NCBI GenBank assembly: GCA_040772045.1
Contig: JAXGYV010000011.1
Location: 12,484-76,483, forward strand
Length of the DNA stretch: 64,000 nt
Source of the DNA: Thermoleophilia bacterium
GTDB taxonomy: Bacteria > Actinomycetota > Thermoleophilia > UBA2241
Reading direction: 5' to 3'
In this document: piece by piece, positions 12,204-34,875 of the stretch
Numbering within the stretch: the stretch's first letter is position 1
How the letters are laid out: every line of letters begins with the position of its first letter
The notes under the pieces: model-generated
Database searches by the model: none
What the model was told of the DNA's origin: nothing
Seen by the model: the letters and a program-made list of their open reading frames with translations, nothing else
Position numbers and translations under genes: made by a program

Positions 12204-13442
12204 ATGAGCATCTACTTCTCCATCTATCTTCTGCCCGCGGCCGCGTTCTCCGTGCCCTTCTACTGGCTCGTCCTCAAAAAGGACCAACATCGCCTGCTCT
12301 TCCTGCTCCTCGGCTCCGTGGGCGTCCTGATGACGATTCACCCTGTCTTCGCTATGGTGGCCCCAGGGGTCGTCGCCGGGTCATGGGCTCTGGTCAACTG
12401 CATGGACAAGCGGCGCCTTACGATCGATACCGCACTCGTGATCGCCATTTCGGCGGCCATCCTCATCCTGGCCATCGGAAAGTACGGCCGCGACATCGCC
12501 GCCGCCATTTGGTCGCCCGACGACTGGGTGCTCAGCCGACTGATCATGCCCCTCGGGCTGAGCTACTTCGCATTCCGCCTCTTGCAGTACGTGTTCGACC
12601 ACGCACGGGGAACGCTGAGAGACCGCTCGCTGGTACGCCTCGGCGCATTCATGTTCTTCCTGCCCATCTTCCCGGCCGGGCCGCTCGAGACGTACCAGGG
12701 TTTCTACGAGAAACGCTCCTCGCACTTCGACAAGCAGCTCCTCTACGGCGGCCTGCGGCGAATCGTGCTGGGCTATTTCAAGAAGACGGTGATCGTCGAC
12801 TTCCTCATCGCCATCTTGTTCTCCGACCTCTTGCGAGACGTTCACGCCGCCGATCTTGGCGAAGCTCTCGTTCATCCCGCGTGGGGCCCCGCCTTCGTAG
12901 TCGTCGCCTTCCTGCGCGCCTACGCGGATCTGTCCGCGTACACCGATCTCGCCATCGGTTTCTCGAGCCTCTTCGGCTTCCGCATCATGGAGAACTTTGA
13001 CCGCCCGCTCTGGAGGCCCAATCTGGCGGAGTTCTGGCGCTGCTGGCATATTTCGCTCAGCAGCTGGTGCCGCAACAACGTGTACTTCCCCATCTTCGGC
13101 CTCACGCGCAAACCGTGGCTCGGTCTCTACGCGACCATGCTGGTCATGGGTCTGTGGCACTACGTAAACCTCAATTGGACAGCATGGGGCCTCTACCACG
13201 GCACCGGCCTCGTGGTGGTCTCGTGGTGGATGAAGCAGAAGCGGAAACGGACTAGAGCCTGGAGGGCAACGGGACGACCGCTGTGGGCTCGCCTCCTGAG
13301 ACCATCGGGCTATGTCGTCACCTTCCTCTTCGTCGCCCTGGGCTACTCCTTCGTGGCCACCCAAAGGTTCCCGGAGGCGCTTCGGGTTTTCGTATGGGCC
13401 GTCGTCGGCCCCTTCATCTGGCTCGGACAGCGGATGTTCTAA
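12204..13442 (+). CDS. membrane-bound O-acyltransferase (MBOAT; DltB/AlgI family)
   Basis: Multi-TM protein with FWRCWHISLSSWCRNNVYFPIF (MBOAT catalytic His motif). Confidence 0.8.
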   Translation: MSIYFSIYLLPAAAFSVPFYWLVLKKDQHRLLFLLLGSVGVLMTIHPVFAMVAPGVVAGSWALVNCMDKRRLTIDTALVIAISAAILILAIGKYGRDIAAAIWSPDDWVLSRLIMPLGLSYFAFRLLQYVFDHARGTLRDRSLVRLGAFMFFLPIFPAGPLETYQGFYEKRSSHFDKQLLYGGLRRIVLGYFKKTVIVDFLIAILFSDLLRDVHAADLGEALVHPAWGPAFVVVAFLRAYADLSAYTDLAIGFSSLFGFRIMENFDRPLWRPNLAEFWRCWHISLSSWCRNNVYFPIFGLTRKPWLGLYATMLVMGLWHYVNLNWTAWGLYHGTGLVVVSWWMKQKRKRTRAWRATGRPLWARLLRPSGYVVTFLFVALGYSFVATQRFPEALRVFVWAVVGPFIWLGQRMF

Positions 13443-24139: not shown

Positions 24140-25957
24140 CTACGCCGACGGCGCGCGCAGACGCCGCACACCAACCGAGACCGACCCCGGTCCTACGTGT
24201 GCCATGAGCACGGGACCGGCGCGCACGATCGGCACCTCCGCTACGCCGAAGAGGCGACGCAGCTCCTGGGCGAGGTAGTCTGGCCACTCCCCCGCGCCGC
24301 TGTGCACGATCATCAGACGCACCGGCGCGCCGGCAGCGAACTTGTCCACCCGCGAGGCGAGAGCGTGCAGAGCGCGACGAAATCCGACCGCGACACCCCC
24401 CTTGCCCGGCTTGCCCATGCGGTCGAAGACGATCAGCGGTTTAAGGCGAAGGGCATCGATGACGCCGGCCGCACGCGGGCTCACGCGGCCGCCGCGTACC
24501 GCGTACTCGAGGGTCTGGACGGTACCGAAGACCGTGATGTCGTCGCGTACAGTATTCGCCAGCGACTCCAGTGCATCCAGATCCGCCCCTCCCGCGATAC
24601 CCTCGCCCAGCGCCTCGAGCAGCAGCCCCGTGCCCACCGAGTTGGTACGCGAGTCGATTGCCCTGACGCGTACCGGGTCCACCGCCCGGGCGGCGGCGGC
24701 GGCCGCCTGCCACGTACCGGACTGCGCCGCCGCGATGTGCACCGATACAACGCCGTCGCGATACTCGAGGAGCCGCTGATACGTCTCGCGGAAATCGCCC
24801 ACCGGGGGCTGCGACGAGGTCGGCAGCAGCGGTGATTCGCGCAGACGGCGGGCGAATCCGTCGGCGGATATATCCACGCCATCGAGGTAGCTTTGTTCCC
24901 CGAAACTGATCGTGAGAGGCACGGTCACCAGGCCGAGCTCGAACGCCCTGCGCTCGGGCAGCTCGCACGTGCTATCCGCGACGAGCGCGATGCTGGCCTC
25001 GCGTGCCGAGATCTGCTGCAGCACCATGTCGTCGACCTTGGAACTCTCGATGACGCCGAATGCGGCCACCGCTTCGAGGAAGCGCTGCGGCTCGTTGGTG
25101 TGAACGTGAACACGCAGGCGGTCTTCTCCGCCAGCCACCACCAGCGACTCGCCCAGGTCCGAGATGGCGGCCACGAGCGCCGAGCGATTCACACCACGGC
25201 CGGCCGCCGACACAAGGGCCTCAGCGCAGAAGCGAAAACGCTCGTCGGCCTCAGCGTGTGCGCGCGTCATGGACGCCGCCCCGCGGGGAGCCGGCTCCAC
25301 GAACAGCTCCTCCGGCTCCTTGCCTCCCCGCAGCATCTCCGACACGCCCTCGAGGAAGTACACAAACCCCTGTCCACCAGCGTCCACCACATGGCTGCGC
25401 GCTAGGATCTCGAGCTGGCGCGGCGTGTTCGCCAGCGCGTCCCGCGCGGCCTGCAGGCCATGGTGAAGGAGCTGCGCGAATCCACTCGCCGAGGCCGCTC
25501 GCTCGCGCAACGCATGCGCCCATACACGCAGCACCGACAGGATGGTCCCTTCCCTTGGGTTCGCCAGGGCCGCATAGGCCGACTCCATACCGCGCTGCGT
25601 GGCCAGAGCGAACTCCGCGGTCGACACGTGCGCCGCGGTATCGAACGCCGCCGCCAACCCGTGGAGAAACTGGGCGACGATGGCCCCCGAGTTGCCCCGC
25701 GCGCCGTCGAGCGCCCCGTCCGCGGCCACCCGCGCGGCGGCGCCCACGGACTCTGGCACATCGTCCCCGAGCCGTGAGGCGGCCGCCCGAAACGTGGCCG
25801 CCAAGTTGGCCCCTGTGTCGGCGTCGGGGACGGGGAACACGTTGATGCGATTCAGTTCTTCCTGCGAGCGCATCACGGCGAGGGTTCCCGCGCGCATCAC
25901 GCGGGCGAAGTGCCGCCCTCCGAGTGCCTGAAAATCATCGGGCGCTTCGCGTTGCAT
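24140..25957 (-). CDS. DAK2-domain fusion protein YloV / fatty-acid kinase FakA-like
   Basis: DhaL/Dak2 N-terminal domain (NVFPVPDADTGANL, GNSGAIVAQFLHG). C-terminal EDD-fold domain with IALVADSTCELP. Start MQREAPDD at 25957. Confidence 0.65.
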   Translation of the reverse strand: MQREAPDDFQALGGRHFARVMRAGTLAVMRSQEELNRINVFPVPDADTGANLAATFRAAASRLGDDVPESVGAAARVAADGALDGARGNSGAIVAQFLHGLAAAFDTAAHVSTAEFALATQRGMESAYAALANPREGTILSVLRVWAHALRERAASASGFAQLLHHGLQAARDALANTPRQLEILARSHVVDAGGQGFVYFLEGVSEMLRGGKEPEELFVEPAPRGAASMTRAHAEADERFRFCAEALVSAAGRGVNRSALVAAISDLGESLVVAGGEDRLRVHVHTNEPQRFLEAVAAFGVIESSKVDDMVLQQISAREASIALVADSTCELPERRAFELGLVTVPLTISFGEQSYLDGVDISADGFARRLRESPLLPTSSQPPVGDFRETYQRLLEYRDGVVSVHIAAAQSGTWQAAAAAARAVDPVRVRAIDSRTNSVGTGLLLEALGEGIAGGADLDALESLANTVRDDITVFGTVQTLEYAVRGGRVSPRAAGVIDALRLKPLIVFDRMGKPGKGGVAVGFRRALHALASRVDKFAAGAPVRLMIVHSGAGEWPDYLAQELRRLFGVAEVPIVRAGPVLMAHVGPGSVSVGVRRLRAPSA

Positions 25958-25971
25958 CGCCACGACCTTCC

Positions 25972-28296: not shown

Positions 28297-28687
28297 AGTG
28301 AGCCCCCTCTCGGCCGCCCGGTCCGTTCACTATCGGCCGGTAGTCCATCGGTCGATACGAAGCTCTCGGCGCGAAGCTGGTGTTGCGTGTGCGACGGGCG
28401 CCAACGCCTGAGCGGATGGGCGAGCAGAGAGCGACGAGGCTCCACGAGAGCAACGGCAGTGCTCAACAGGAATCGTCCGTCGCCCTCGCCTGGTGGACGC
28501 ATGCCGACCAGGCACCCACCAGGCCCTCACTCACTGGCCGCCGCCCCCTTGCTTCGAACGCAGAGATCATTCGCACGAGAGGAGCTTATCGGGCTCGGCC
28601 GCTGGGGACAAGGAACATGGTCCACCGCGAACGCACGTGCGCGGCGGACGGCACATCTCCATCCTGCACAGTCACCCTAGAACCCGC

Positions 28688-31294
28688 ATGGTCACCCTAG
28701 CTCTTTCAGCGGCAGTCCCGCACGATGCAACCGTGAGACGACGAGTCCTCTTTGACATTCCGACGGTCGCCATGTTGCACGCAGCGTGGCGCGCCCGCTA
28801 CAGCTCCCCACCCCCACCCACCATCACGATCGCGGACGACCATTCCTTCCACGCGCCCCCTTATCCCGACGAGCTGGCCCACGGCACCCCAGCACTTCTC
28901 TGGTGGAACGCAGATGCCGGCACGCTCCTGCGCCACGCCGACCACGTGCTTCGCCAGCTCGTCTATCCGCTCGCCTGCGGCGACCGCATTTTCTGGATCG
29001 CCTTCCCCTTTTCGGCCGAGCTGCTCGCTCCTCGTCCACTCACGCTCAACTCGCGGGCACTCCTCGACGTGGAAGATATCGGCCGGCTGCTCGCCTCGTG
29101 CTGTGCGACCTCATCACCCATGGGTCATACCGGACTCCCACGAAGACCATCCCCTCCTTCTCGAACAGTCCCGTACCAGGCACTCCCCCTGGACCCAGAT
29201 CTCGACCAGGCCCAACAGCAGGCGATCCTGCACCCCTTTGGCCCCCTCCGCGTGCTAGCACCCGCCGGGGCAGGAAAGACCAAGACCATGATCAATCGCA
29301 TCAGCGCGCTCGTGGCGCAGGGAGTCCATCCGGGCAGCATCCTCTCCCTGGCCTTCAATACAAAGGCGGCCGAACAACTCGAGGAACGCCTGGGCCGCCT
29401 GGGCCTCCCCACCACCCGGCGGCTCGCCGATCGTACCGGCGTTCACTGCGCGACCTTCAACGCCTTCGGGCACCGCTATCTTTCCGAGGTCGTCAACCAA
29501 CCATTCACGGTAGACGCAAGCGTCGCCGCCGAGGAACGTCTCGTGCACCAGGCCCTGTGGCGGCACCTCAAGCCACGCGGTGCTCAGCGCGACGCCCCAC
29601 TCGAGAGCACCCTGAGCGCGGTCCTCGACGACCTCACCTGGAGAGCCCGCGAGCATCTGGCGGCTCTGCGCGCCGACTGCGCCGAAGTCGACATGCTCAC
29701 GCTCCCCATCCCGCCCGCGCTGCGAGAGCAGCGCGGCGGGCCAAGCAGCCTGCCGTTCGGACGTGTTTTGCGCGACATCCGCGGCATGCAACAGCGCCGG
29801 CAAGCGATCTCGTTCGACGACCAAGTCCACGCCTGTCTGCTGGACCTCCTCGCCAGGCCAGACCGCAGAGCGGCGTTCCAGCGCCAGTTCCGCCACGTGC
29901 TGGTCGACGAGTTCCAGGATCTCAACCGGGCACAACTGGCGCTAGTGGATGTCCTCTCGCGCCCGCACCGTAACCTGTTTGTCGTCGGCGACGACGATCA
30001 GCTCATCTACGGTTGGCGCTTCGCCCGTGTGGCGACCATCCTGAACTTCACCGATACCATGCCCTACACGCCCCACGCATCCAGCGTCATCCTCACGACG
30101 AACTACCGCTGTTCCCGAGAGGTGGTACGCCGCGCTTCACAGCTCATCGCCCACAACCACACCCGCGTCGAGAAAACCGTCCGCTGCCGTCCCGACGCCA
30201 CGGAGGGCATGGTCGCCTTCGTCGCCTCCCCCAACTGGCCCCTCCGGGCCCAGGCGATTGCGGAGTTCATGGCCAACGAGCACGCGGCGCGATCCTGCCG
30301 GTGGCAAGATCTCGCGGTGCTCTGCCGCTACCGCTGTCAGCAGCCACTGGCGGTAGCGGCCCTGAATGCCGCGGGTATCCCCGCGTCGCTTCCCGAACCA
30401 GCACCGTTCGCTCATGGGCCTGGGGCGGAACTCCTGTGCCGCTGCTTACGTCTCTTGCAGGATCCCGCCAGAGACACTCAGCCGGATACCGCCGCCCTCG
30501 CTCGCTCGCTCGGGCTCAGTACCACCGTCCTCCTCCGCCGAGCACGCGACCTCCGCCGGTGGGTACGTACGGAGCAGCCGGCGGCGCGCGAGGTGGTGGC
30601 CACTGTCCTCAACGAACTGCCGGTGGAATCCGCGGCCCTGCGCCGAGAGCGTCGCGGAGCGCAAGGTAGTGCCAGTGCCGCCGGCTCCAACGAAACGGGC
30701 GGCGCCACCAGGGCGCTAGCGGCGGCACAGCTGCTCAGCATGGATCATGGCAGCCTCGCCTCGTTTCTGTCTCTCTGGGAAGAGCTCACGTACCATCACG
30801 CCTCCCCCGCCGGCGCTGCCGGCCCCGCGGCGACGGCCCCCGCCGACGCTATCGCGGTCTCCACCATCCATGCCGCGAAAGGACGCGAATACGGCGCCGT
30901 GGCCATTCTCGACTACGCGACAGACCTCGCCGCGCTCGACCAAAACGACGCGGAGGAGGAGCGACGAGTCCTCTACGTCGCACTCACCCGCGCGCGGCAC
31001 GACGCCCTCTTCACCGTCGATACCGCTAAGTGGGCACCTCACCCGTTTCTCCACGAGCTCGCCAACCCGCCCAGGCCAGCCGAATTGCCGGCGCTTCGCC
31101 GCCGGCTCGCCCACGCTGACCACCGTCTCACGGAACTCACGGCAACGGACCACCGCGGCGCCCAGAGTCGCCAGGACATCGGTGCACTACACCTGCACCG
31201 GCTCTCCCTCGCGAGCCGCCTCACCGAGCACCGCCTGTTCCGCCCGAGCAGCCGATTCGGTACCTTCCTCCGCGGGGGTGTTGTTCCGCGCTAA
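28688..31294 (+). CDS. UvrD/Rep-family DNA helicase with ~170-aa N-terminal extension of unknown function (start uncertain; ORF open from 28493)
   Basis: VLAPAGAGKTKTMINRI (Walker A), VLVDEFQDLN, VVGDDDQLIYGWRFA, VSTIHAAKGREYGAV, VLYVALTRAR. Confidence 0.75.
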   Translation: MVTLALSAAVPHDATVRRRVLFDIPTVAMLHAAWRARYSSPPPPTITIADDHSFHAPPYPDELAHGTPALLWWNADAGTLLRHADHVLRQLVYPLACGDRIFWIAFPFSAELLAPRPLTLNSRALLDVEDIGRLLASCCATSSPMGHTGLPRRPSPPSRTVPYQALPLDPDLDQAQQQAILHPFGPLRVLAPAGAGKTKTMINRISALVAQGVHPGSILSLAFNTKAAEQLEERLGRLGLPTTRRLADRTGVHCATFNAFGHRYLSEVVNQPFTVDASVAAEERLVHQALWRHLKPRGAQRDAPLESTLSAVLDDLTWRAREHLAALRADCAEVDMLTLPIPPALREQRGGPSSLPFGRVLRDIRGMQQRRQAISFDDQVHACLLDLLARPDRRAAFQRQFRHVLVDEFQDLNRAQLALVDVLSRPHRNLFVVGDDDQLIYGWRFARVATILNFTDTMPYTPHASSVILTTNYRCSREVVRRASQLIAHNHTRVEKTVRCRPDATEGMVAFVASPNWPLRAQAIAEFMANEHAARSCRWQDLAVLCRYRCQQPLAVAALNAAGIPASLPEPAPFAHGPGAELLCRCLRLLQDPARDTQPDTAALARSLGLSTTVLLRRARDLRRWVRTEQPAAREVVATVLNELPVESAALRRERRGAQGSASAAGSNETGGATRALAAAQLLSMDHGSLASFLSLWEELTYHHASPAGAAGPAATAPADAIAVSTIHAAKGREYGAVAILDYATDLAALDQNDAEEERRVLYVALTRARHDALFTVDTAKWAPHPFLHELANPPRPAELPALRRRLAHADHRLTELTATDHRGAQSRQDIGALHLHRLSLASRLTEHRLFRPSSRFGTFLRGGVVPR

Positions 31295-31322
31295 CAGACC
31301 GATTCAGGCGCCGTGTCCACAG

Positions 31323-31362
31323 GTTCCCTCTCCACCTCTTGGGTTTCCTCTCCGTCTCTTGG
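31323..31362 (+). repeat. tandem imperfect 20-bp direct repeat (x2) upstream of the 31573 gene
   Basis: gttccctctccacctcttgg / gtttcctctccgtctcttgg (17 of 20 identical). Confidence 0.6.
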
Positions 31363-31572
31363 CGAGAGATAATTGTCACAGTAACGTCTCAGGAGAGTCT
31401 CGCGTATGCAGCGCCATGTCACTCACCTCGGCCTATCGCCTAGCGCCTCCTGGTCGTCGGCCGCGCCCTGGCTTTCACCTCGCTCATTCACAACCCGCGG
31501 TGTGCTCTCCCACGGCCCTCTCGCCGGGCCACACCCCTCACAGGCTGCGGCGACCACGTGGAGGCCTTCAAC

Positions 31573-32115
31573 ATGAGTACCGCCGGAAGCAGCCGAGACT
31601 GGGCGAGCCGCATGGGCGGCAAACCCACAACTGGACCCGGCGTGTCTCTCCCGCCGGGCATGGCGGAGCCGCTCCACGACACGGCGGAAGTGGACGAATA
31701 CGTCACACAGACGACGCTAAAGGAAGACCAGCTCCTCGAGGCGATCCAGCGGCGCCGAGCAATCATCGCGGGCATCCGTTCGGGGGTCGAGCTCCAACGC
31801 TGTCTCACCATGCTTGCAGCGCTCGGCGAGCCGGAGAGCTTCGCCTCGCGCATCGCGTACCTCGAGAAACGTGTACACCGCGCAGGATGCAAGAGGCCGT
31901 CGCTCTTCGGTGGCTTCCGCCTGGGGACCGCACGCGAGGAGCGCGAGCTCCGCGATCTCGTCAAACGGCGCGATACAGCCGTCACACTCAGCGAGCGTGT
32001 CACCCTCCTTCAGCAAGACCCCGACGCGCTCGTCCGTCACTTTGAGATGGAGACCAGCCGCCTCGAGGTACGGCTCCGCACGCTGCGTGAGCGCCGGCGG
32101 GCGAAGAGCACGTAA
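31573..32115 (+). CDS. hypothetical protein
   Basis: GGAGG 9 nt upstream of ATG 31573; 180 aa, Arg/Glu-rich predicted helical C-terminus. Confidence 0.4.
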   Translation: MSTAGSSRDWASRMGGKPTTGPGVSLPPGMAEPLHDTAEVDEYVTQTTLKEDQLLEAIQRRRAIIAGIRSGVELQRCLTMLAALGEPESFASRIAYLEKRVHRAGCKRPSLFGGFRLGTAREERELRDLVKRRDTAVTLSERVTLLQQDPDALVRHFEMETSRLEVRLRTLRERRRAKST

Positions 32116-32221
32116 CGCCAACCCACCATACTCAGCCCCGCGCGACCTCCGACGGTCGACTCCCGCGGGCCCCATCGGAGATGATAGGGAGAGCGAGCGC
32201 ACCTCCGGCCCGCGAGAGGGC

Positions 32222-34021
32222 TCCGGCAGCGCTGCGATCACGATCAGGAGGCACGGCATCATCAACGGCGTTTCCAGAGCATTTCGCGTAGCTGCCGTTC
32301 TGTTCGACTTCGACGACACGCTCACCACGCCAGGCGCGCTCGACTTCGATCGTATCCGCCGCGATCTCGCCTGCCCGCCCGGTACGCCCATTCTCGAGCA
32401 CATCGCCGGCCTGCCGTCGGCTGAGCAACGCGCCCGCGCCTCCACGCGACTCAACGAACTGGAGCTCGAGGCCGCCGAGCGAGCGCAACCCAACCCTCAC
32501 GCCGAGGCGCTCGTCCGGCGCCTTCAAGATACAGGCCTGCCGCTCGGCATCCTCACCCGCAATAGCCGTGCGTCCGTCGAGCGGGCGCTCCACAACTTCC
32601 CCGCGCTGCGGCCCGCGGACTTTCAGGTGATCGTCTCCCGCGACGATCACGTACCGCCGAAACCCGCCGGCGACGGTGTCGCGTACGCCGCCCGTCGCCT
32701 CGGTGTAGACGTCCGCGAGCTCCTGCTCGTGGGCGACTACATCTTCGACGTGCTGGCCGGCGCGAGCGCCGGTGCGCTCACCGTGCTCCTGCAACCCGGC
32801 GACCTTCTCGACGCCGGCTACGCCGACGTCAGCGCGGAAGGTACACCGCAGTCCACCACGCGGCCTGTCCTCGGCAAGATCTATCCCGACGGCACACTCG
32901 ACCCCGCCCCCGACTGGGTGATCCGCAACCTATCCGACCTCCCCAACCTGGTACGCATGGGTCGACCCTTGCCCGCGGGCAAGTTTCCGGCCGATCTCTT
33001 GGAGACTTTCCTCGACTCCCTGCCGAACGACAACCCCAGTGTTCTCCTGGGACCGCGCCTCGGCAGAGATGTAGCCGCCCTGCGCGTCGCGCCAACCGAT
33101 AGTTACAACTCCAGCGAGGAACCGCCGACGCTGGCCGTGGGCGCCGACCCGGTCACCTTTACCACGGACGATATCGGCGCCTGGGCGGTCCTCGTGAACG
33201 CCAACGACATCGCCACCTGCGGTGCTCTGCCACGCTGGTTCTTCGCTACCCTCCTCTTGCCCACCGGCTCCACCCCCTCCCAGGTCCTCGAGATCCTCCA
33301 CAGCGTACGGAAGGCGTGCGCGCGCGAGGGCATCGCCTTATGCGGCGGGCACACCGAGATTACCGACGCGGTCGTTCGACCAGTCGTCAGCGGGGCCATG
33401 CTGGGTACGGTCAGCGTCGATGGTCTGGTGGATAAGCGCGCCCTGCGGGAAGGCGACAGCCTGCTGCTCACCAAGCGCGTGGCCGTAGAAGGGACAACAC
33501 TCCTGGCCAGCGAGTTGGGCGACGAGCTCCAGCGCCGCGGCATGACCGCGGAAGAGCTGTCAGCGTGCCATTCGCTGCACGACAAGCTGAGCGTAGTGGC
33601 CGACGCCGCCATCGCGGCAAGCGTCCCCGGCGTGAGCGCCATGCACGACGTTACCGAGGGCGGCCTGGCGGCGGCCATAATGGAGCTCTCGGCCGCTGGC
33701 AGGCACGCCATCACCGTTAGTATGGAGGCCATCCCGCTCTACGCGGAGACGCAACGCATCAGCGCCCTCCTCGACATCGATCCGCTCGGCCTCATCGGCT
33801 CCGGCAGCCTGCTCATCTGCTGCCGGCCCGCCGCACGCGCGGCTGTGGCCAATGCATTGTCCACAGCGGGCATTGAGTCGACGGTCATCGGGAACGTGGG
33901 CGCCCCCCTGGACCACTCTGACGGCGTGGTAACAGCCACGCACCACGGAACTCCGGTACCGTGGCCGCACTTCGATGTCGACGAGGTAGCGCGCGTTCTG
34001 AGCGCGCTGCCCCGCGGCTAA
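32222..34021 (+). CDS. HAD-like hydrolase fused to AIR-synthase-related (PurM/HypE-like) domain; start codon not identified
   Basis: AAVLFDFDDTLTTPG (HAD motif I). PurM-like N- and C-domains (LAVGADPVTFTTDDIGAWAVLVNANDIATCGALP, GIALCGGHTEITD, VSAMHDVTEGGL). No in-frame ATG/GTG/TTG between the upstream stop (32115) and the HAD motif. Confidence 0.6.
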   Translation, partial: SGSAAITIRRHGIINGVSRAFRVAAVLFDFDDTLTTPGALDFDRIRRDLACPPGTPILEHIAGLPSAEQRARASTRLNELELEAAERAQPNPHAEALVRRLQDTGLPLGILTRNSRASVERALHNFPALRPADFQVIVSRDDHVPPKPAGDGVAYAARRLGVDVRELLLVGDYIFDVLAGASAGALTVLLQPGDLLDAGYADVSAEGTPQSTTRPVLGKIYPDGTLDPAPDWVIRNLSDLPNLVRMGRPLPAGKFPADLLETFLDSLPNDNPSVLLGPRLGRDVAALRVAPTDSYNSSEEPPTLAVGADPVTFTTDDIGAWAVLVNANDIATCGALPRWFFATLLLPTGSTPSQVLEILHSVRKACAREGIALCGGHTEITDAVVRPVVSGAMLGTVSVDGLVDKRALREGDSLLLTKRVAVEGTTLLASELGDELQRRGMTAEELSACHSLHDKLSVVADAAIAASVPGVSAMHDVTEGGLAAAIMELSAAGRHAITVSMEAIPLYAETQRISALLDIDPLGLIGSGSLLICCRPAARAAVANALSTAGIESTVIGNVGAPLDHSDGVVTATHHGTPVPWPHFDVDEVARVLSALPRG

Positions 34022-34061
34022 ATCGAGAGCCGCCCTCCACAGAGCGACACCGACTGGCTAG

Positions 34062-34769
34062 CTAGTTGGTATCGGTATCGATGAGATCGCCGGCCGTCAC
34101 GATGCCGAGCGGAGATTCTGTATCCGCTCCGGTCGCCGTGATGATGGCGGCGAACACCCGCGGCCGGCGCTTCTCCCCTCGCGGTAGCTCGAACGCCCGT
34201 CGCGCTTCCTCCAACGAGGCGTCGCGCGGCAGAAAGGCGCAGCTGCCCCGCGGCTCGTGCTGCAGCGCGTCCGCCACGGTCACCCCGGCCGGATCGGGCA
34301 ACTCGCCGTCGATGTTCGCCGCCAGCCAGCGGGCGATGCCCTCCAGCGTGAGCAATGTGTACCGCTCGCCCTCCACGTACACGACTACCTGCGAGTAGTC
34401 CTTGCCGTGCATGTGCTTCAAAGCCGCGGCCAGCGGCTGATCGGGATCGAAGATCTTCAGGTCGCGCCGAAACGCGGGGATCAGCCGGACAGGACGCACG
34501 ATCCCCTCGACGATAGAGCGGAAGCGGGCGAGGCCCCACTCGCTCGGCTCGGCGACGGCATCATGGGGATAGCGCGCCGTATGGACCAGCAGGTTCCGGA
34601 GGCTCTTGCAGTCGTGAAGCTCTCCGACTAACGAACGATGGATGAAACCCCGGCGCACCGCCTCGTTGACCAGGTTCATGAAGTCCCAGGGGCGATCGAT
34701 TCGCAGCACCCGGCGCAGATGCGCATCCAATTCATTGAAAAGGGCGACAAACTCGGCTCCGCGGTCCAT
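34062..34769 (-). CDS. hypothetical protein with N-terminal HEPN-like Rx4H region and C-terminal CBS-like pair
   Basis: DCKSLRNLLVHTARYP (Rx4H). Two ~50-aa segments resembling CBS domains. Confidence 0.4.
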   Translation of the reverse strand: MDRGAEFVALFNELDAHLRRVLRIDRPWDFMNLVNEAVRRGFIHRSLVGELHDCKSLRNLLVHTARYPHDAVAEPSEWGLARFRSIVEGIVRPVRLIPAFRRDLKIFDPDQPLAAALKHMHGKDYSQVVVYVEGERYTLLTLEGIARWLAANIDGELPDPAGVTVADALQHEPRGSCAFLPRDASLEEARRAFELPRGEKRRPRVFAAIITATGADTESPLGIVTAGDLIDTDTN

Positions 34770-34875
34770 AGCTCCACCTTATCGCGTCAGCACTCGACGA
34801 AGCCACCGCATGCGACGCGGCGTTCACGCTAAGAAGAGGGTGAGAGATGCTTCGGAGAGTCTCGGCGTGCGACGT

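Follow-up and report, generated by a model that had tools for sequence, protein, structure and literature searches.

The 64,000-nucleotide (nt) stretch of DNA analysed here, referred to as the window (positions 12,484 to 76,483 of contig JAXGYV010000011.1, from a Thermoleophilia bacterium), carries on its forward strand a gene that encodes a HAD-type hydrolase domain joined to a PurM-like, AIR-synthase-related domain. The features of the locus are collected in Table 1. The window has a G+C content of 66%, and long open alternative frames are common in it. At this locus, the list of open reading frames (ORFs) gave 31558..32115 and, in a different frame, 31814..34021. The first contains the upstream gene, whose start codon is preceded by GGAGG at 8 nt; its product was 52% identical to that of a syntenic 175-amino-acid (aa) gene of locus L003 and showed no Pfam or NCBIfam match in the profile search. 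The second is the HAD frame. Read in the codon phase of position 32258, it is uninterrupted from HAD motif I, whose Asp codon lies at 32306, to the TAA at 34019-34021, and the translation of 32117-34021 contains, in this order, VLFDFDDTL, LAVGADPVTF, GIALCGGHTEITD and AMHDVTEGGL.

The original prediction had described the two domains in a single frame, in agreement with the translation and with the Pfam matches. It had also taken the stop codon ending at 32115 as that of the HAD frame; this codon belongs to the upstream gene, which is read in another frame, and the true upstream stop of the HAD frame is the TAA at 31718-31720. The codon listing confirmed that no in-frame ATG, GTG or TTG is present from 32116 to HAD motif I, and the translation confirmed that the ATG at 32181 opens, in another frame, an ORF that ends after 36 codons. 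Taken literally, the claim that the gene has no canonical start does not hold, since the HAD frame contains farther upstream an in-frame GTG (32087) and five further GTG or TTG codons; it does hold for the place where the orthologues start.

Table 1. Features of the locus (window coordinates; SD, Shine-Dalgarno sequence; pN/pS, ratio of non-synonymous to synonymous change)
Feature	Coordinates	Strand	Basis or remarks
Upstream conserved hypothetical gene, 180 aa	31573..32115	+	Start ATG 31573; frame other than that of HAD; TAA 32113-32115
In-frame GTG, nearest canonical start	32087..32089	+	73 codons before the nucleophile Asp; 644-aa product; 29-nt overlap with the upstream gene
Bipartite promoter-like motif (TCGACT 32156-32161, 18 nt, GATGAT 32180-32185)	32156..32185	+	Conserved in nine lineages
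Mini-ORF of 36 codons from the out-of-frame ATG, unlikely to be a gene	32181..32291	+	Translation
SD AGGAGG	32246..32251	+	6 nt before ATC 32258
Two in-frame ATC codons (32258, 32261), proposed near-cognate start	32258..32263	+	SD spacing, orthologue N-termini
Proposed coding sequence, HAD-PurM-like fusion, 587 aa + stop	32258..34021	+	Pfam, orthologue alignment, pN/pS, AlphaFold2
HAD-IA hydrolase domain, aa 1-232	32258..32953	+	Pfam, NCBIfam, alignment, AlphaFold2, 2ybd match
PurM-superfamily domain (AIRS + AIRS_C), aa 233-587	32954..34018	+	Pfam, alignment, Foldseek

Profiles and motifs place the protein in subfamily IA of the HAD superfamily and in the PurM superfamily. The Pfam models HAD_2 and Hydrolase scored 59.5 and 61.7 bits (gathering cut-offs of 23.8 and 26.4, respectively), while AIRS and AIRS_C scored 58 and 71.6 bits (cut-offs of 24 and 23.1). 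The four HAD motifs are D17-F-D19-D-T21 (motif I, 32306-32320), T100-R-N (motif II), K135 (motif III) and G159-D160-x3-D164 (motif IV), and their residues occupied invariant or near-invariant columns in an alignment of 28 sequences. An invariant C39-P40 pair lies in the HAD cap, which is helical. For its part, the N-subdomain of the PurM superfamily is marked by the signature DX4GAXP, found here as D317-IATC-G322-A323-L-P325 (33206-33232), with D317, G322, A323 and P325 invariant; this stretch aligned with NDVAVSGAIP of HypE. The stretches LCGGHTE (aa 361-367) and MHDVTEGG (aa 462-469) were also conserved, and phmmer alignments to HypE and SelD matched the motifs with NDVAVSGAIPR, GDT/GGHS and RDATRGG/TDVTGFG. 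Over both domains, about 100 residues were invariant in the 28 sequences.

An AlphaFold2 model built from the same alignment, with a mean predicted local distance difference test (pLDDT) score of 84.6, showed a predicted Rossmann-like HAD core with a helical cap and, directly after it, two PurM subdomains. Between strands 13-17 and 96-99, the model had helices 30-37, 45-50, 55-75 and 82-91 (pLDDT above 88), which corresponds to a helical C1 cap inserted, in the model, between motif I and motif II. When the Protein Data Bank (PDB) was searched with Foldseek, HypE came first (E ~1e-19; template-modelling score to target of 0.70-0.80), followed by ThiL and SelD, and no single solved chain with both domains was retrieved. 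The closest solved relative of the HAD domain was PDB 2ybd (residues 15-179, E=3e-21). According to Pfam and Foldseek, the C-terminal fold is of the PurM/AIRS type, so that the ATP-grasp-type label previously given to it should be dropped.

The combination of domains had been regarded as unusual. In a search of 5.8 billion clustered proteins, the best 120 matches were inspected, and all 120 were full-length fusions with the architecture HAD+AIRS+AIRS_C (526-644 aa, 45-98% identity, at least 97% of the query); 119 proteins fell at 45-66% identity with at least 97% of the query covered. The 120 fusions came from Desulfobacterales, Thermoleophilia, Acidobacteriota and Spirochaetota, and the database names, for those matches that had one, were 'HAD-IA family hydrolase', 'HypE' or 'hypothetical'. 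The 587-aa protein aligned over its full length with 27 family members at 47-65% identity. A HMMER search over 1.84 billion 50%-identity representatives yielded 645 proteins at E<=1e-30, made up of the fused form and many stand-alone AIRS proteins (~340 aa, 38-46% identity). Among the matches listed for GTDB species representatives, the fused gene was found in Desulfobacterales (including Desulfosarcina and Desulfonema), Thermoleophilia and other Actinomycetota, as well as in Acidobacteriota, Spirochaetota, Kiritimatiellae and Aminicenantes, the top match being a Thermoleophilia metagenome-assembled genome (MAG) at 52%. No characterised member with a HAD plus AIRS/PurM-like fusion was found in the literature, among solved structures or in NCBIfam. 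The gene is very probably an intact member of a widespread and functionally uncharacterised family of HAD-PurM-like fusions.

About 170 loci were classified with domain hidden Markov models built from the family alignment. A canonical HAD domain was present in 109 loci and a divergent or truncated one in 35, 23 loci had none (plus 6 incomplete), and HAD and AIRS were encoded by adjacent separate ORFs in L077 (3706-5658) and L089 (5204-7023). Separate genes for the two domains, the arrangement that would have spoken against a genuine fusion, were thus limited to a minority, made up of these two adjacent splits and of many stand-alone AIRS proteins. Many of the divergent loci encode dead HAD domains, in which motif I has changed from FDFDGTL to FHLxxTL and both the Lys and GDxxxD are gone; the Gly-Cys-Pro of the cap and the whole PurM-like domain were still conserved in loci of this kind. 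Dead or half-length HAD domains, the latter keeping the C-terminal half, were seen in L058, L059, L064, L065, L070 and L126-L154, which amounts to ~35 of the 170 loci. Stand-alone PurM-like proteins of ~340 aa were encoded by L071, L072, L074, L075, L079-L091 and L156-L159, and the taxa with a stand-alone domain were Spirochaetales, SAR202/Dehalococcoidia, Poribacteria and Anaerolineae. Since the HAD domain is intact, divergent or absent across the loci, the PurM-like domain is the constant core and the HAD domain an accessory.

The reliability of the sequence was established by comparison with L001, a contig of an independent Logan assembly (run SRR32923645). Over window positions 31116-34770 (3655 nt), both sequences were 98.55% identical, with 53 substitutions and no gaps, and this comparison excludes an assembly or sequencing error. 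From 31999 to 32419 (421 nt) they were identical; this stretch runs from the last part of the upstream gene, through the entire intergenic leader, to the 54th codon. Intergenic sequence elsewhere differed from L001 by ~4-17% (11 differences in 31295-31572 and 7 in 34022-34061), and neither an Rfam family nor an unusual RNA fold was found that would account for the identical stretch. Within the ORF, 9 synonymous and 9 non-synonymous substitutions were counted, giving a pN/pS of 0.37 (p=0.03 versus neutrality), and none of the 9 amino acid changes fell on an invariant column. None of the 3 substitutions in one flanking gene and none of the 6 in the other was non-synonymous; constraint on the fusion gene appears somewhat looser, although the counts are small.

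When the starts of the orthologues were examined, as the original prediction had proposed, an ATG, GTG or TTG was found 6-35 codons before the nucleophile Asp in 104 of 105 complete fused loci, the sole exception being L001, which represents the lineage of the window. The N-termini of the orthologues lie 4-20 residues before the conserved F-R-V-x-x-V-L-F-D-F-D; a start at ATC 32258 would leave 8 residues before F-R-V, compared with 4-11 in the orthologues. Other genes of the window show GGAGG or AGGAG at 4-11 nt from their starts. In L002, whose protein is 66% identical, the sequence AAGGAG is likewise followed after 6 nt by an in-frame ATC, within a leader that otherwise could not be aligned with that of the window, and the ATG of L002 aligns with GTT 32270 of the window. 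Scans of metagenome and genome contigs returned, among the matches listed, only relatives of at most 52% identity and none closer in which the ATC codon could be tested. The G+C content at codon position 2 was 0.72 in the interval 32116-32258 and 0.50 in the gene, and ATG and ATC lie 77 nt apart in the window and 90 nt apart in L002, lengths whose difference cannot be divided by 3; both observations argue that this interval is non-coding. As for the equivalent of ATG 32181, it shares the frame of the HAD ORF in L002 and L172, and is separated from it by stop codons in L003, L006 and L008. It is thus conserved as DNA and not as a codon.

We therefore lean, with modest confidence, towards translation starting at ATC 32258 or 32261. 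Most simply, this lineage lost the canonical start at the usual place, and initiation is driven from the ATC by the SD sequence. A rare start was among the options initially offered for this gene and is the one favoured here, with the qualification that GTG 32087 had been overlooked. In Escherichia coli, AUC initiates with Met at ~1-2% of the level of AUG, and annotated ATC starts are rare (bioRxiv 10.1101/063800).

Upstream of the proposed start, the bipartite motif occurs in a fuller form, (G)TCGACN-N18-[GC]A[TA]GAT, at 32155-32185, that is, downstream of GTG 32087 and before the SD sequence; the out-of-frame ATG 32181 is part of its second hexamer. With equal spacing, the motif preceded the gene in the window and L001, L002, L003, L172, L006, L008, L173, L011 and L012, lineages that, beyond the window and L001, are 50-66% identical at the protein level. 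It was kept regardless of the identity of the upstream gene and of the phase of the internal ATG. The 2.9 Mb of DNA retrieved contained 25 matches, 16 of them at these upstream sites, and the relaxed motif matched only once on the plus strand of the window, with one minus-strand match at 31790 that is unrelated to the gene. We infer from this pattern of conservation that the motif would be the gene's own promoter, with TCGACN as the -35-like element and NATGAT, which keeps A2 and T6, as the -10-like element. The leader would then be of ~65 nt. In L012, a Thermoleophilia MAG (1014-1085), the ATG start of the orthologue comes just 11 nt after the -10-like hexamer, which would make the transcript nearly leaderless. 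An Rfam search of 31900-32450 at E<=10 gave matches at chance level only (best, 17 bits versus a gathering cut-off of 56.8), with no riboswitch or leader family, and folding of the putative leader (32190-32275) gave -29 kcal/mol (z=+0.5 versus shuffled sequences), with no special structure.

Four other explanations were weighed. The first, a start at GTG 32087, would add a lineage-specific N-terminal extension of 57 residues. This codon is canonical and in frame, the frame is open from there on, and the gene caller picked the equivalent GTG of L001 for P0001, a 98%-identical protein of 644 aa; an exact-sequence look-up of the window's own 644-aa product gave no record. The extension region is also identical in the window and L001, and no terminator was called between the two genes in a scan of 31400-34400, so that read-through transcripts could carry the GTG. 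However, GTG 32087 lacks an SD sequence in the preceding 12 nt (the closest GAGG lies 18 nt before it), and it arises from codons for a conserved L-R-E-R-R of the upstream gene and is absent from L002 and L003. Furthermore, the extension matched nothing in the 27 aligned orthologues, its codon-position G+C pattern is not coding-like, and it would traverse a DNA motif that is conserved independently of the reading frame. We consider this start, which is the main rival, unlikely.

A second explanation is that the gene is decaying, its start having been lost (ATG or GTG to GTT 32270) and the ORF being untranslated or only spuriously translated. In accordance with this, the lineage is the only one of 105 with no canonical start in the usual position, and its pN/pS exceeds that of both flanking genes. 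Nevertheless, 587 codons have remained free of stops and frameshifts in two strains 1.45% apart, the catalytic and family-invariant residues are all kept and are avoided by the amino acid changes, pN/pS is significantly below 1, and a perfect AGGAGG lies at a functional distance from an in-frame near-cognate codon, all of which makes decay improbable. Still more so is a 1-2-bp assembly or sequencing indel that hides the true start, for instance by displacing ATG 32181 from the frame. Although the ATG within NATGAT is in frame in L002 and L172, where the gene callers used it, L001 comes from a different strain and yet shows no indel over the 3655 nt and no difference at this site, and the stops that part the ATG from the ORF in L003, L006 and L008 indicate that it is not the start of the family. 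Finally, a fusion with the upstream 180-aa protein through a programmed +1 frameshift before TAA 32115 can practically be set aside, as well as the related suggestion that the gene is expressed as a fusion: in the window and L002, the HAD frame meets no stop within the 3' part of the upstream gene, but such open frames are frequent at this G+C content, no slippery or stimulatory element was seen, in-frame stops separate the two genes in L003, L006 and L008, and L006 and L008 have another upstream neighbour (DUF169 or a 230-aa gene).

Taken as a whole, the explanation that we prefer, somewhat more confidently than not, is an intact, selected and probably monocistronic gene for a cytosolic two-domain enzyme, with its own promoter and an AUC start. 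Transcription would proceed from TCGACT-18-GATGAT, and initiation would take place at the near-cognate AUC 32258 (or 32261), 6 nt after AGGAGG, which would result in low, IF3-sensitive expression. The HAD domain would act as a Mg2+-dependent phosphohydrolase that removes phosphate via an aspartyl-phosphate intermediate, with Asp17 as the probable nucleophile and Asp19 as the acid/base, Thr100, Lys135 and Asp160/Asp164 being also present. The PurM-like domain, which by sequence retains the probable Mg-ATP-binding residues of HypE, ThiL and SelD, would pass the gamma-phosphate of ATP on to a small substrate, at an O (or S/Se) atom, either as a kinase or as an activation for dehydration or cyclisation. 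The two activities would presumably be consecutive steps on one small metabolite.

Several observations weigh against this explanation. The canonical ATG of L002 lies 12 nt after its ATC, so that the conservation of the SD-ATC arrangement may be coincidental; AUC is an inefficient initiator; and a canonical in-frame GTG is available, possibly carried by read-through transcripts, as described above. The transcription start site and the N-terminus are placed by prediction from sequence only. A strict sigma-70 search, run with the terminator scan of the same region, called nothing, the motif included, and the motif could be an operator instead. The chemistry is proposed by analogy of fold and motif. 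With the HAD domain dead or absent in about one-fifth of the loci, a phosphatase step is not essential to the core function of the family. In addition, clustering of the neighbours of ~160 loci yielded no partner conserved across phyla, only synteny at the level of lineages.

Because HAD catalysis has repeatedly been lost while the cap Cys-Pro was kept, there are hints that the HAD module may also have a non-phosphatase role. A mobile Cys acts as a carrier or delivery residue in HypE and SelD, and the survival of the cap Cys-Pro where the phosphatase residues are dead raises the prospect that the cap Cys could act similarly. A more ambitious version of our proposal, in which a natural and selected AUC start, conserved in the 66%-identical relative, sets a low, IF3-tuned level of a new type of bifunctional enzyme, with a HypE/SelD-like ATP-dependent activating domain and a HAD module whose cap Cys is perhaps the carrier or delivery residue, is a speculative one and rather unlikely as a whole.

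Within the family, the 1031-aa protein P0121 is a DHA2/EmrB-type major facilitator superfamily (MFS) transporter fused to HAD+AIRS, and in Desulfonema magnum (L009, 6512-9635) the end of an MFS gene lies 1 nt ahead of the HAD-AIRS gene; this fusion and this adjacency hint at a link to small-molecule transport. In the clade of the window, the neighbours are a UvrD-type helicase gene, the hypothetical gene and a convergent CBS-domain gene, with genes for PcsB-like cell-wall hydrolases, VWA and AAA proteins and a sigma factor also within ~8 kb. Elsewhere, SmpB/RNase R, Pterin_4a, MFS, TetR, B12-radical SAM and ABC exporter genes were found, RNase II-like and DAP-decarboxylase-like genes being also among the lineage-level neighbours. 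Loci of the Desulfobacterales type (L018-L168) showed a convergent gene for a TetR regulator ~70 nt downstream in 40 loci and a divergent B12-binding radical SAM gene ~220 nt upstream in 21 loci. Two other ORFs of the window deserve mention. The 607-aa ORF at 24143-25963 (minus strand), with Dak2, a FakA-like middle domain and DegV, looks like a fatty acid kinase fusion of the FakA-FakB type. The ORF of the UvrD-type helicase (28493-31291, plus strand) has ~235 N-terminal residues with no domain match before the helicase domain, and the GTG annotated as its start may lie too far upstream.

In general, the fusion is already known in databases, the oddity of its start codon is minor and the overall finding is an ordinary one. 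It illustrates how a start can seem to be missing when a stop codon is read in the wrong frame, and the automatic 644-aa annotation probably carries a spurious extension of 57 residues. If true, a natural AUC start would slightly extend the short list of documented non-canonical bacterial starts. The family itself, with hundreds of 50%-identity clusters in at least five phyla, joins a phosphatase to an ATP-dependent PurM-type domain, and the variation of its HAD domain (intact, dead or absent), the constant cap Cys-Pro and the single MFS fusion offer a starting point for the study of its function.

Among known systems, HypE is the best match of the C-terminal domain in both sequence and structure (TIGR02124, 113.1 bits; 2i6r, E=4e-18), and its motifs NxND..GAxPR, GxT and (H/R)DxT.GG align with the window protein. 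HypE acts in [NiFe]-hydrogenase maturation, where it carries out the ATP-dependent dehydration of S-carbamoyl-Cys to thiocyanate. The window protein does not reach the TIGR02124 cut-off of 251.6 and lacks the C-terminal Cys of HypE, ending instead in FDVDEVARVLSALPRG, in agreement with a family consensus of WPxFEVDEIARLF without a conserved Cys; HypE, in turn, has no N-terminal HAD domain. No hyp genes were found in the neighbourhood of the gene (~8 kb) or in the orthologous loci. Identity with HypE was rejected on the basis of the score, the absence of the C-terminal Cys and the lack of hyp context in the neighbourhoods examined. SelD shares the PurM fold, with a TIGR00476 match that begins at the N-terminus of the domain (the GK-P-DLLE-FL stretch, alignment columns 275-290) and with GGH(T/S) and DVT.(G)GL aligned. 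The SelD of E. coli has a Cys in an N-terminal Gly-rich loop, whereas the corresponding loop of the window protein, PLPAGKFP, has neither Cys nor Sec, and only G241 and K242 are invariant in it. With 66.6 bits against a cut-off of 125 and such a loop, identity as a selenide, water dikinase was also discarded.

ThiL, the thiamine-monophosphate kinase, is a PurM-type enzyme that works as a plain kinase. It shares the fold (Foldseek E=2e-18), but TIGR01379 gave 73.5 bits versus a cut-off of 184.15 and no thiamine gene context was present; this identity was rejected on score. The same applied to the sll0787 family of AIR synthase-like proteins (TIGR04049, 34.2 versus 321.3 bits). Thus, the profile search suggested in the original prediction left HypE, ThiL, SelD and sll0787 all below threshold, with AIRS and AIRS_C above their cut-offs. 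The HAD-IA phosphatases (phosphoglycolate phosphatase [PGP] and the PpaX type) have the four HAD motifs and a helical C1-type cap in common with the window protein, and 2ybd is itself a Pseudomonas fluorescens HAD hydrolase of unknown substrate. The window HAD domain scored below the cut-off of every HAD-IA equivalog (PpaX, 47 versus 218; PGP, 43.5 versus 180) and, unlike these phosphatases, it is joined without a linker to a PurM-like domain and carries the family-specific invariant Cys-Pro in its cap.

With regard to initiation, the E. coli genes infC and pcnB, which have AUU/AUC starts, combine a strong SD sequence with an AUH codon at normal spacing and are expected to show low, IF3-dependent initiation (bioRxiv 10.1101/063800). 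The window gene differs from them in that its codon is AUC and not AUU and in that its start is a sequence-based prediction. Its closest counterparts are the other fusions of the family, with 45-66% identity over 97-100% of the query. The D. magnum protein (WP_207679928.1 / QTA92652.1; P0094) has the same three-Pfam architecture, falls in the same length class and shares the invariant motifs of both domains, and the clade of the window is set apart by an insertion of ~35 residues where the HAD domain ends (alignment columns 215-250).

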